A stretch of DNA of 30,565 nucleotides, from the NCBI GenBank assembly GCA_020833025.1, contig JAJHRB010000011.1:1-30565 (forward strand), in the 5' to 3' direction. Made by a program: the position numbers and the translations under genes. Source of the stretch: Thermoproteaceae archaeon. Lineage in GTDB: Archaea; Thermoproteota; Thermoprotei; Thermoproteales; Thermoproteaceae. Numbering within the stretch: the first letter of the stretch is position 1; every line of letters starts with the position of its first letter. The notes beneath the pieces were generated by a model. That model worked only from the letters and a program-made list of their open reading frames with translations. It ran no database searches and was not told where the DNA came from. Positions 6,216-16,257 of the stretch are shown here, one piece after another.

Positions 6216-7091
6216 GTGCTCGGCCAGGCCGCAGATCCCGTCGAGCAGGTGCTGCTGAAGTTCAAGCAGCTCGACCTGAGCCCCTACATCAGCCCGCCCG
6301 CCGAGAGGCCGCCGGAGAGGATCAAGGTCTACGCGCCTGACGGGACCCTGGCAGCAGAGACAATCGCGCCGCCCCACTTCTTTGAGTACGTGAGGCCAGA
6401 CCTGATAAGGAGGGCCTACCTGAGCGCGCTCTCGGCTAGGTTCCAGCCCAAGGGCACTTACGAGGGGGCAGGCAAGGAGCACAGCTGCGAGTCGTTCGGC
6501 GTGGGCCTCGGCATTGCCAGAATCCCGAGATACAAGGGCCACTTGTGGCCGCGCGGCTGCATGGCGCCCAACACTGTCGGCGGCAGGAGGGCCCACCCGC
6601 CCAGGCCCGAGAAGAAGCTCCACGAGGAGATAAACTGGAGGGAGAAGAACCTCGCGATAAGGTCCGCCATTGCCGCAACGGCGTACAAGTCGTGGGTCTC
6701 CGCGAGGGGCCACGTGATAGACAGAGTGCCCTCGCTACCCCTCGCCGTCACGGAGGGCGCAGAGAAAATAGAGAGGGCGGGGGGCGCGAGAGGGCTCTTC
6801 ATGGCGCTGGGGCTTTGGGACGACGTAGAGAGGGCAGCGCGGCGCACGAGAATACGGGCCGGCAAGGGCAAGAGACGCGGCAGGCGCTACAAGGAGCCCA
6901 GGAGCGTTCTGGTCGTGGTCTCGCGGCTCGGCGCGCCGCTCGCTAGGGCAGTCAAGAACTTCCCCGGCGTTGACGTGGTCCCCGTCGATCAGCTGAACAT
7001 GCTGGCGCTGGCGCCGGGAGGCGTGCCCGGCAGGCTGACACTGTGGACCCTCCCGGCAATAGAGAGACTGAGGCAGGGGCTGTTCCTGTGA
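6216..7091 (+). CDS. rpl4: 50S ribosomal protein L4 (uL4)
   Basis: VRPDLIRRA, ESFGVGLGIARIPR, VGGRRAHPP, RAGKGKRRGRRYK, LAPGGVPGRLTLWT; own TATA TTATAAA upstream. Confidence 0.96.
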   Translation: MLGQAADPVEQVLLKFKQLDLSPYISPPAERPPERIKVYAPDGTLAAETIAPPHFFEYVRPDLIRRAYLSALSARFQPKGTYEGAGKEHSCESFGVGLGIARIPRYKGHLWPRGCMAPNTVGGRRAHPPRPEKKLHEEINWREKNLAIRSAIAATAYKSWVSARGHVIDRVPSLPLAVTEGAEKIERAGGARGLFMALGLWDDVERAARRTRIRAGKGKRRGRRYKEPRSVLVVVSRLGAPLARAVKNFPGVDVVPVDQLNMLALAPGGVPGRLTLWTLPAIERLRQGLFL

Positions 7092-7336
7092 TCATTAAGA
7101 GATTCGTCATAACGGAGAAGGCAATAAGGCTCGCGGAGAGGGAGAACAAGATAACAATAATCGTTGACAGGCACGCCACTAAGAAGCAGATAGCTGAGGA
7201 GGTAGAGAGGCTCTACGGCGTGAGGGTCGAGAGGGTAAACGCGCTCATAACGCCGCAGGGGGAGAAGAAGGCGTACGTGAAGCTGGCAAGAGAGCACAGC
7301 GCGATGGACCTGCTCAGCAAGATAGGAGTGCTGTAG
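7088..7336 (+). CDS. rpl23: 50S ribosomal protein L23 (uL23)
   Basis: IIKRFVITEKA..ENKITIIVD..ATKKQI..GEKKAYVKL; GTGA overlap with the rpl4 stop. Confidence 0.95.
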   Translation: MIIKRFVITEKAIRLAERENKITIIVDRHATKKQIAEEVERLYGVRVERVNALITPQGEKKAYVKLAREHSAMDLLSKIGVL

Positions 7337-7337
7337 G

Positions 7338-7391
7338 GCAGCGGCGCCTGCCGCGGGGCTCCGCCGCTCTGCCTGGCTGAGCTACGGGCCC
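7338..7391 (-). tRNA. Orphan 5' half of a tRNA gene (positions 1-30, tRNA-Lys-like) plus 21-nt BHB intron-like segment; no 3' half in cis
   Basis: Minus strand reads GGGCCCG-TA-GCTC-AGCCAGGCA-GAGC-G-GCGG, then AGCCCCGCGGCAGGCGCCGCT-GC, then the rpl23 stop antisense; TTTTATT box about 25 nt upstream; no T-arm or acceptor 3' strand follows. Confidence 0.75.
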
Positions 7392-7440
7392 TCGCGCACT
7401 CGCGCCACCCGGGAATAAAAGCTTTTCCTAACGGTCACGC

Positions 7441-16064: not shown

Positions 16065-16121
16065 CGGCGCGAGCATGACGCGCGTTCCAGGTCCATGTAA
16101 AGGACAGCTGGACGGGGCGGC

Positions 16122-16257
16122 TGGTCGGCCCGCCGGGATTTGTGGGCGGGTTTCCCCTGAACCCGGGACCGCCCGCTACAGGCCCGGGGAATTGCGCCCT
16201 GCTGTCCCCCCGGGGGCTGTCTACAGCCGGGCGCTCTGACCGCTGAGCTACGGGCCG
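16122..16257 (-). tRNA. tRNA-Tyr(GTA) with two non-canonical introns (39/40, 43 nt, 16176-16218; 56/57, 17 nt, 16142-16158)
   Basis: C1-G72 acceptor CGGCCCG/CGGGCCG-A-CCA; removing both introns gives a perfect 76-nt cloverleaf; bulge-helix motifs at both junctions; TTTTAAA about 25 nt upstream. Confidence 0.88.

Follow-up and report, generated by a model that had tools for sequence, protein, structure and literature searches.

A probable trans-split tRNA-Trp(CCA) in a Pyrobaculum genome, with its 5' half encoded beside the ribosomal protein L23 gene

Split tRNA genes are a rare arrangement. They are also central to the debate over the origin of tRNAs, as two half-molecules from the start or as whole molecules that were broken later. 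The closest described systems are the trans-spliced tRNA-Lys(CUU) of Staphylothermus marinus, S. hellenicus and Nanoarchaeum equitans (Chan, Cozen & Lowe 2011, PMC3218864; Randau et al. 2005). [quoted passage not shown] A 2014 review lists the same species only, with split tRNA genes in about seven archaeal species (PMC4033280). Split and tri-split tRNAs are also on record, through that review, for Caldivirga maquilingensis (Fujishima et al. 2009, cited in PMC4033280). In the literature searched, no paper was found that describes a split tRNA-Trp, or any split tRNA in Pyrobaculum. The locus described here would bring in Trp as a new isotype and Pyrobaculum as a new genus, for which the absence of split tRNAs was reported in 2011.

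The window, by which is meant the whole 30,565-nt stretch of DNA that was analysed, is contig C46 of a draft genome (1.56 Mb in 126 contigs, 62.6% GC, 94% complete) whose host is Pyrobaculum by GTDB genus. Its minus-strand segment 7428-7340 is very probably a gene in its own right, encoding the 5' half of a trans-split tRNA-Trp(CCA) (Table 1). This reading draws on gene architecture, complementarity, motif geometry, product identity and evolutionary origin, all of which can be followed in the sequence itself. The original prediction placed tRNA positions 1-30 at 7391-7361, and it is accurate to the base. These nucleotides comprise the acceptor 5' strand GGGCCCG, U8 and A9, a D-stem (GCUC/GAGC) with the D-loop AGCCAGGCA, G26, and then GCGG at positions 27-30.

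Table 1. Positions of the 5' half, its proposed partner and other tRNA genes and halves of the host genome (C46, the window, unless another contig is named)
Feature	Position	Strand	Basis or remark
BRE/TATA-type archaeal promoter, GGAAAAGC + TTTTATT	7414-7428	-	read directly; predicted from sequence
TTTTATT box	7420-7414	-	directly preceded by GGAAAAGC
Spacer, TATA box to tRNA position 1	7392-7413	-	22 nt
5' exon of tRNA-Trp(CCA), positions 1-30 (31 nt incl. 17a)	7361-7391	-	31/31 vs relatives' genes
Trailer: A7360 (first non-exon base), then 14-nt arm GCCCCGCGGCAGGC (7359-7346)	7346-7360	-	complement of C28 19339-19326
Bulged G7345 + CCGCT (7344-7340)	7340-7345	-	co-fold: possible 5-bp helix extension with C28 AGCGG
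Ribosomal protein L23 gene, convergent	7043-7336	+	Pfam PF00276, E 3.4e-15; stop codon 7334-7336
tRNA-Arg(CCG)	10973	+	other tRNA gene of the window
tRNA-Trp 3' half	C28 19344-19256	-	own TATA box
TATA box GAAAAGCATAAAATT	C28 ~19372-19364	-	~20-24 nt before leader's pairing region; predicted promoter
Leader: AGCGG, 14-mer GCCUGCCGCGGGGC, GUCG, UG	C28, ends 19320	-	complement of C46 trailer
3' exons, positions 31-76 with encoded CCA	C28 19319-19305 + 19286-19256	-	read from sequence
Cis intron at 45/46, 18 nt	C28 19304-19287	-	read from sequence
Arg(UCU) halves	C89 28993 + C13 7364	- and +	promoter-bearing; trailer/leader complement
Asn(GUU) halves	C20 13302 + C74 5818	- and +	promoter-bearing; trailer/leader complement
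Gln(UUG) halves	C28 34809 + C19 711	- and -	promoter-bearing; trailer/leader complement
Gln(CUG) halves	C14 10839 + C89 466	+ and +	promoter-bearing; trailer/leader complement
Leu 3' halves (UAG, CAG, GAG, one more)	C89 48541, C89 53522, C102 3207, C34 22761	+, -, +, +	own promoters, near-identical leaders
Leu 5' halves, only two	C89 44350, 55050	+, -	one with 10-11 nt complement to all four Leu leaders

A promoter had been claimed for this half and the claim holds up at the level of sequence. A GGAAAAGCTTTTATT box is placed 22 nt ahead of tRNA position 1, at about -36 to -22, and the spacing matches that in 15 ordinary tRNA genes of the host genome. When upstream regions are aligned, the identical spacing is also seen ahead of seven other 5' halves in the same genome. 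With the same box at the same distance in 15 cis genes and seven other 5' halves, the promoter call is not a one-off match. Relatives' tRNA-Trp genes have a similar upstream promoter box, GAAAAGCTTAAAAA. The usual distance from the centre of an archaeal TATA box to the start is about 24-27 nt. Transcription of the 5' half is predicted to start at 7391 or a few nucleotides before it, which would leave a short or absent 5' leader.

The other end of the transcript is less tidy. The L23 stop codon lies 4 nt past the trans-pairing region of the trailer, and no clear oligo-T terminator is present between the two. For this reason the 5'-half transcript probably reads antisense into the 3' end of the L23 gene. 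There is a precedent in N. equitans, where RNA-seq has some tRNA halves running into opposite-strand neighbour genes and a defined 3' end is dispensable (PMC3491384).

Standard tRNA finders miss both halves, and the host genome would be scored as having no tRNA-Trp. At 7338-7420 neither ARAGORN nor Rfam (gathering and E-value modes) returned a tRNA, and the only matches were at chance level (YrlA, 17 bits). The anticodon, T-arm and 3' acceptor strand had been said to be missing in cis. This is borne out: the other tRNA genes of the 30.6-kb window are Arg(CCG) and Tyr(GUA) only, so it holds no Trp 3' part on either side of the half. The Tyr(GUA) gene (~16100-16257, minus strand) has several introns, with inserts after the anticodon and in the T-loop (loop CUGUAGA); ARAGORN misses it, and Rfam gives it 25 bits, below threshold.

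Where, then, is the rest of the tRNA? The host genome was searched for 12-mers complementary to the 5'-half trailer. Three consecutive seeds matched, and together they form one 14-mer at one place, C28 19339-19326 on the minus strand, 6 nt ahead of a G31. Aside from the locus's own opposite strand, this complement is unique in the host genome. The original prediction had envisaged a 3' half with a complementary leader ending in GCCG-NN before G31. Exactly one tRNA 3' half matches GCCCCGCGGCAGGC, and its leader ends in GTCG-TG, then G31. From G31 the C28 gene continues with the anticodon loop CUCCAGA, the stem strand CCCGU, AG, the 18-nt insert, GUC, a T-arm (GGGGG/UUCAAAU/CCCCC), the acceptor strand CGGGCCC, A73 and CCA. 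CGGGCCC pairs base for base with GGGCCCG of C46. No other pairing of an orphan 5' half with an orphan 3' half in the host genome has as long a perfect complement as C46/C28.

These are separate loci. The contig end faced by the trailer is 7.3 kb away and the one faced by the leader 17.4 kb, which puts the halves at least 24.7 kb apart if C46 and C28 abut, and the L23-L4-L3 genes lie beyond the 5' half. Both contigs have a composition typical of the bin. The 18-nt intron at 45/46 of the 3' half belongs to a small family. Closely similar introns (GCCG...GCGGGCGGA-) occur in Trp (C28 19304-19287), Cys (C89 ~52560), Arg(UCU) (C13 ~7345), Lys(UUU) (C81 ~490) and Asn (C74 ~5800), and their central helix takes in tRNA bases 40-43.

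It is clear that the two halves make a complete tRNA on paper. C46 7391-7361 joined to C28 19319-19305 and 19286-19259 gives 74 nt, which ARAGORN reads as a canonical cloverleaf tRNA-Trp(CCA). The joined exons agree with uninterrupted tRNA-Trp genes at 72/74 positions in P. arsenaticum, 71/74 in P. islandicum and 70/74 in P. aerophilum, and the 5' exon recurs unchanged (31/31) at the start of the uninterrupted P. arsenaticum and P. oguniense genes (for P. oguniense, strain TE7, CP003316, among the relatives compared). The 94%-complete assembly holds no second CCA-anticodon stem-loop in a tRNA context. The 5' pattern of tRNA-Trp and its anticodon-arm pattern each occur once in the assembly, on C46 and C28 respectively. 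Host tRNA-Trp is most likely made by joining two transcripts.

The original prediction offered a 5' piece of a split tRNA-Lys as one of two readings. It was right about the split half and wrong about the amino acid, the partner's anticodon loop being CUCCAGA and not CU(C/U)UUAA. Every Pyrobaculum relative has the D-loop AGCCAGGCA in its tRNA-Trp, and the Lys genes of these relatives have AGCCTGGTA. The Lys and Trp 5' parts of Pyrobaculum differ only in this loop, which explains the mistaken guess. A check for Lys tRNAs elsewhere in the host genome finds a Lys(CUU) gene on C31 and a split Lys(UUU) on C81.

What if the C46 half is simply dead, the 5' remnant of a copy destroyed by recombination, with an intact tRNA-Trp in the unassembled 6% or so of the genome? 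The assembly is indeed incomplete (94%, 126 contigs), and the genome does contain tRNA fragments, likely integration-site duplicates (tRNA-Ser 3' ends at C17:96 and C12:11372). Nevertheless, this explanation is very improbable. The fragment has stayed 31/31 identical to functional orthologues and retains its promoter, relatives have a single tRNA-Trp gene, and both halves sit in the ancestral tRNA-Trp neighbourhood (see below), which marks them as the original gene and not a copy. A matching 3' half exists, with a promoter, a complementary leader and a correct bulge-helix-bulge (BHB). The same promoter-bearing 3' half on C28 counts against the alternative offered at the outset, a gene truncated by recombination. 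As for the tRNA-Ser fragments, 3' portions are duplicated at C17 96 and 10521 (-) and at C12 552 and 11372 (+), ~10.4-10.8 kb from full genes. They have no leaders or BHB, and they resemble att sites duplicated by integrated elements rather than split halves.

Trailer and leader pair through 14 perfect base pairs, a 1-nt bulge (G) and then up to 5 bp. From the annealed strands a BHB can be drawn at exactly 30/31. Its outer helix is 3 bp (G22-G24, 7369-7367, with C32-C34), its central helix 4 bp (C25-C28, CGGC, 7366-7363, with leader GUCG, one pair being G-U) and its inner helix the 14-bp one. The bulges, 3 nt each and on opposite strands, are G29 G30/A (7362-7360) and U G/G31. Cleavage is predicted between 7361 and 7360. 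With a G-U in the central helix and an outer helix of only 3 bp, the motif is a relaxed one. An outer helix AGAG/CUCU had been proposed; the CUCCAGA loop of the partner gives the 3 bp G22-G24/C32-C34 instead. A small BHB in cis had also been proposed (GCCG at 7345-7342, inner stem GCC/GGC). It can be drawn, but its bases are better used by the 14+5 bp trans helix of the minimum free energy (MFE) co-fold.

In that co-fold (ViennaRNA), both the acceptor stem and the 14+5 bp helix are formed between the two strands, at -103 kcal/mol. Beside the junction its register is slightly shifted from that of the drawn BHB. Energy rules penalise the BHB motif, and a shifted MFE register is expected. The plain duplex energy is -53.2, against a mean of -28.7 (sd 7.1) for random 45-mer controls, i.e., a z of about -3.5, which is a weak test in a GC-rich genome. 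The control minimum, -53.9, is probably the locus's own opposite strand, which the background included. The case is therefore carried by position and context, not by energy.

One source of such context is the tRNA-Trp genes that have an intron in cis. One genome per species was scanned for a conserved 25-mer of the tRNA-Trp 5' part (at least 119 DNA stretches). Among the matches listed, 101 genes of Thermoproteota have the 25-mer followed by GCUCCAG, and in 56 of them an insert is present at 30/31 (a few of the pairings being chance hits). The first base of the insert is A in 54/56 of the inserts listed. The four nucleotides before the last two are, among the same 56, GCCG in 44, GUCG in seven (as in C28) and GCUG in two, and all three strands can pair with C25-C28. 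The trans complex therefore reproduces the geometry of a widespread and conserved cis intron.

This bears on another possibility, that the arrangement is an artefact of assembly or binning, with a chimeric join at 7337-7340 or contigs from different strains, and that the real gene is contiguous or has a cis intron. The assembly is a metagenome-type draft with some redundancy, for example identical tRNA-Met genes on C35 and C54 and identical tRNA-Ser genes on C17 and C69. An artefact is nevertheless scarcely credible. The tRNA breaks off at precisely 30/31, the conserved site of the intron, and not at a random point, and what follows is the conserved A and a helix arm; the 3' half starts with a promoter and leader, not at a contig end, and the contigs run on for 7.3 kb and 17.4 kb. 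That trailer and leader are perfectly complementary over 14+5 bp points to co-evolution of the two contigs within a single genome. Both match the bin in composition, and an intermediate form of the gene is present in the complete genome of Pyrobaculum sp. WP30 (see below). The redundant tRNA genes are identical together with their flanks (C35 8008-8081 and C54 51-124; C17 10497-10581 and C69 39-123), some of them at contig ends.

Could the C46 half serve more than one tRNA? The 3' halves of Arg(UCU) on C13 and Lys(UUU) on C81 also end in CGGGCCC, and with identical acceptor strands the Trp half might be shared with them, in the manner of the shared halves known from Nanoarchaeum and Caldivirga. 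A 13-nt complement of the trailer (to CGGCAGGCGCCGC) does occur at C13 7258-7270, ~60 nt upstream of the Arg(UCU) 3' exon. However, this 13-mer precedes the nearer of the TATA boxes that belong to the C13 half, and it does not adjoin a BHB. Moreover, Arg(UCU) and Lys(UUU) own better-matched 5' halves (C89:28993, 13 nt; C81:627, 14 bp including one G-U), and the D-loop AGCCAGGCA is Trp-specific in relatives. Sharing of the half, in addition to its use for Trp, is as hard to credit as an artefact. The 13-mer at C13 7258-7270 lies between two TATA-like boxes and also complements 10 nt of the Lys(UUU) trailer; a related intron may have left it as a relic, or it may be a chance match in GC-rich DNA. 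Finally, a permuted tRNA or one with a long cis intron was rejected, given the separate promoters, the protein genes adjoining both breakpoints and a window without a Trp 3' part.

How might a trans-split tRNA-Trp be made? We infer the transcription, annealing, cleavage and ligation of the halves from the layout of the two genes. The BRE/TATA box would drive a short transcript consisting of tRNA positions 1-30 and the GC-rich trailer. The C28 gene would supply the complementary leader, positions 31-76, the encoded CCA and the 18-nt cis intron at 45/46. Trailer and leader would anneal (14 perfect bp, the bulged G and up to 5 more) and the 7-bp acceptor stem would form. The annealed halves would then present the BHB, with outer helix G22-G24/C32-C34, central helix C25-C28/GUCG and bulges G29 G30/A and U G/G31. 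Splicing endonuclease would cut both bulges (G30/A and G/G31) and RtcB would ligate G30 to G31, the same enzymes presumably excising the 45/46 intron. The host genome has one EndA-family gene on C61 (PF01974, the only one detected) and an RtcB gene on C60. The latter (C60 4614-7331, plus strand) consists of two matched blocks in one 961-aa frame with ~1.3 kb between them, possibly an intein-like insertion.

The next question is where the split came from, and here the genus itself provides clues. In 11 Pyrobaculum species tRNA-Trp is uninterrupted at 30/31, and three further species have variant tRNA-Trp sequences. One Pyrobaculum MAG (G014) has a 37-nt cis intron at 30/31. In Pyrobaculum sp. 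WP30 (CP012158, complete, ~1555294-1556310) the gene is in two same-strand pieces, 939 nt apart. The WP30 5' piece is followed by a trailer and then a T-run, TTTTTTATT. Its 3' piece has an GAAAAACTTAAAAAA box of its own, i.e., a second promoter, and a leader complementary to the WP30 trailer but unlike the host's in sequence. A 115-aa antisense ORF lies between the pieces. No description of this adjacent-halves tRNA-Trp was found in the literature searched. The helix sequences differ among the host, WP30 and the intron-bearing MAG while the pairing is kept, which is a signature of selection on structure.

Similar arrangements occur outside the genus. Three Desulfurococcales MAGs (JALWZC010000124, WAON01000166 and CAYUVB010000033) have a tRNA-Trp with 716-785 nt inserted at 30/31, and ahead of the 3' part stand a promoter-like GAAACGCTTAAAAG box and a leader that can pair with the trailer. 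They look like independent adjacent-halves forms outside Pyrobaculum. Both they and the WP30 gene look like an adjacent-halves intermediate stage.

Another clue is that the neighbours of the two halves have not been lost. The genes 1.5-3 kb upstream of the host 5' half also lie ahead of tRNA-Trp in P. islandicum and P. neutrophilum, with orientation and spacing unchanged. In WP30 they lie 2-5 kb upstream of tRNA-Trp. Directly after the host 3' half come the genes that directly follow tRNA-Trp in P. neutrophilum and P. islandicum, and in P. arsenaticum, P. aerophilum and WP30 these genes are further downstream of tRNA-Trp. Each half keeps ancestral neighbours, from which it follows that the break in the ancestral locus fell in the middle of the tRNA and that neither half was parted from the genes on its side. 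Housekeeping genes are the newcomers: L23-L4-L3 lies beyond the 5' half, and a semialdehyde dehydrogenase gene precedes the 3' half; the L3-L4-L23 cluster is not beside tRNA-Trp in relatives. [quoted passage not shown] A mobile element at the breakpoints was considered and rejected, as no integrase or transposase adjoins them among the flanking genes.

Very probably, then, a tRNA-Trp with the widespread 30/31 intron was cut inside the intron by a chromosomal rearrangement. The natural series within the genus and the retained neighbours support such an order of events, with the intron first and the split later. A simple reciprocal inversion, with one end in the tRNA intron and the other at the end of the L23 cluster, was considered and rejected: over the available 1.2 kb, what follows L23 in seven relatives shows no homology to the sequence ahead of the C28 half.

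The Trp gene does not seem to be alone. At least six further host tRNAs look split, namely Lys(UUU), Arg(UCU), Asn(GUU), Gln(UUG), Gln(CUG) and three or four Leu isoacceptors. The Arg(UCU), Asn(GUU), Gln(UUG) and Gln(CUG) pairs have perfect trailer/leader complements of 11-14 nt. For Leu, four 3' halves with near-identical leaders face only two 5' halves, and the complementarity suggests that one 5' half is common to three or four of the 3' halves. Lys(UUU) is split at 30/31 within C81 445-700. Its halves diverge from a perfect inverted promoter duplication (CCAGCCAGGAGAAAAGCTTAAAAGG on both strands), and its trailer and leader pair through 14 bp with one G-U, followed by GCCG-AU before G31. 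This arrangement looks like the result of an inversion with one end in the intron.

It is somewhat probable, on this evidence, that the Trp half is one outcome of a burst in which tRNA genes broke up across the genome of a single Pyrobaculum lineage. N. equitans and C. maquilingensis have six split tRNAs each. If the burst is real, the host holds more than either of them, and more than any described genome. The forms with no intron, a short intron, adjacent halves and dispersed halves would then make a dated natural series, in which split tRNAs arise from intron-bearing genes.

How does this locus compare with the systems already known? It has much in common with the split tRNA-Lys(CUU), namely two separately promoted genes, ligation at 30/31, a sole gene for the anticodon and a mature 5' half of ~31 nt. 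The GC-rich perfect trans helix after the BHB is 13 nt in tRNA-Lys(CUU) and 14 nt here. The differences are the isotype, Trp(CCA), the extra cis intron at 45/46 in the 3' half and the G-U in the central helix. The separation also differs. In Staphylothermus the halves are ~4.5 kb apart, whereas in the host they are on different contigs, at least 24.7 kb apart if these abut. A second group of known split tRNAs, read as recent derivatives of an intron-bearing gene, is split at 37/38 with the halves adjacent. In contrast, the host tRNA-Trp is split at 30/31 and its halves are dispersed and flanked by unrelated housekeeping genes.

C. maquilingensis is also of the Thermoproteales and also has several split tRNAs in one free-living genome, with pieces common to isoacceptors, as the host seems to have for Leu, although there the tRNAs are those for Gly, Ala and Glu and the split sites are others. 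A further likeness is to the crenarchaeal tRNA-Trp with a cis intron at 30/31. The host shares with it the first base A, the GCCG/GUCG/GCUG strand and the 2-nt bulge before G31, features of 53-54/56 inserts among the matches listed. The difference is that the helix arms of the cis intron are on one transcript, 12-46 nt apart, whereas those of the host are predicted to be on two.
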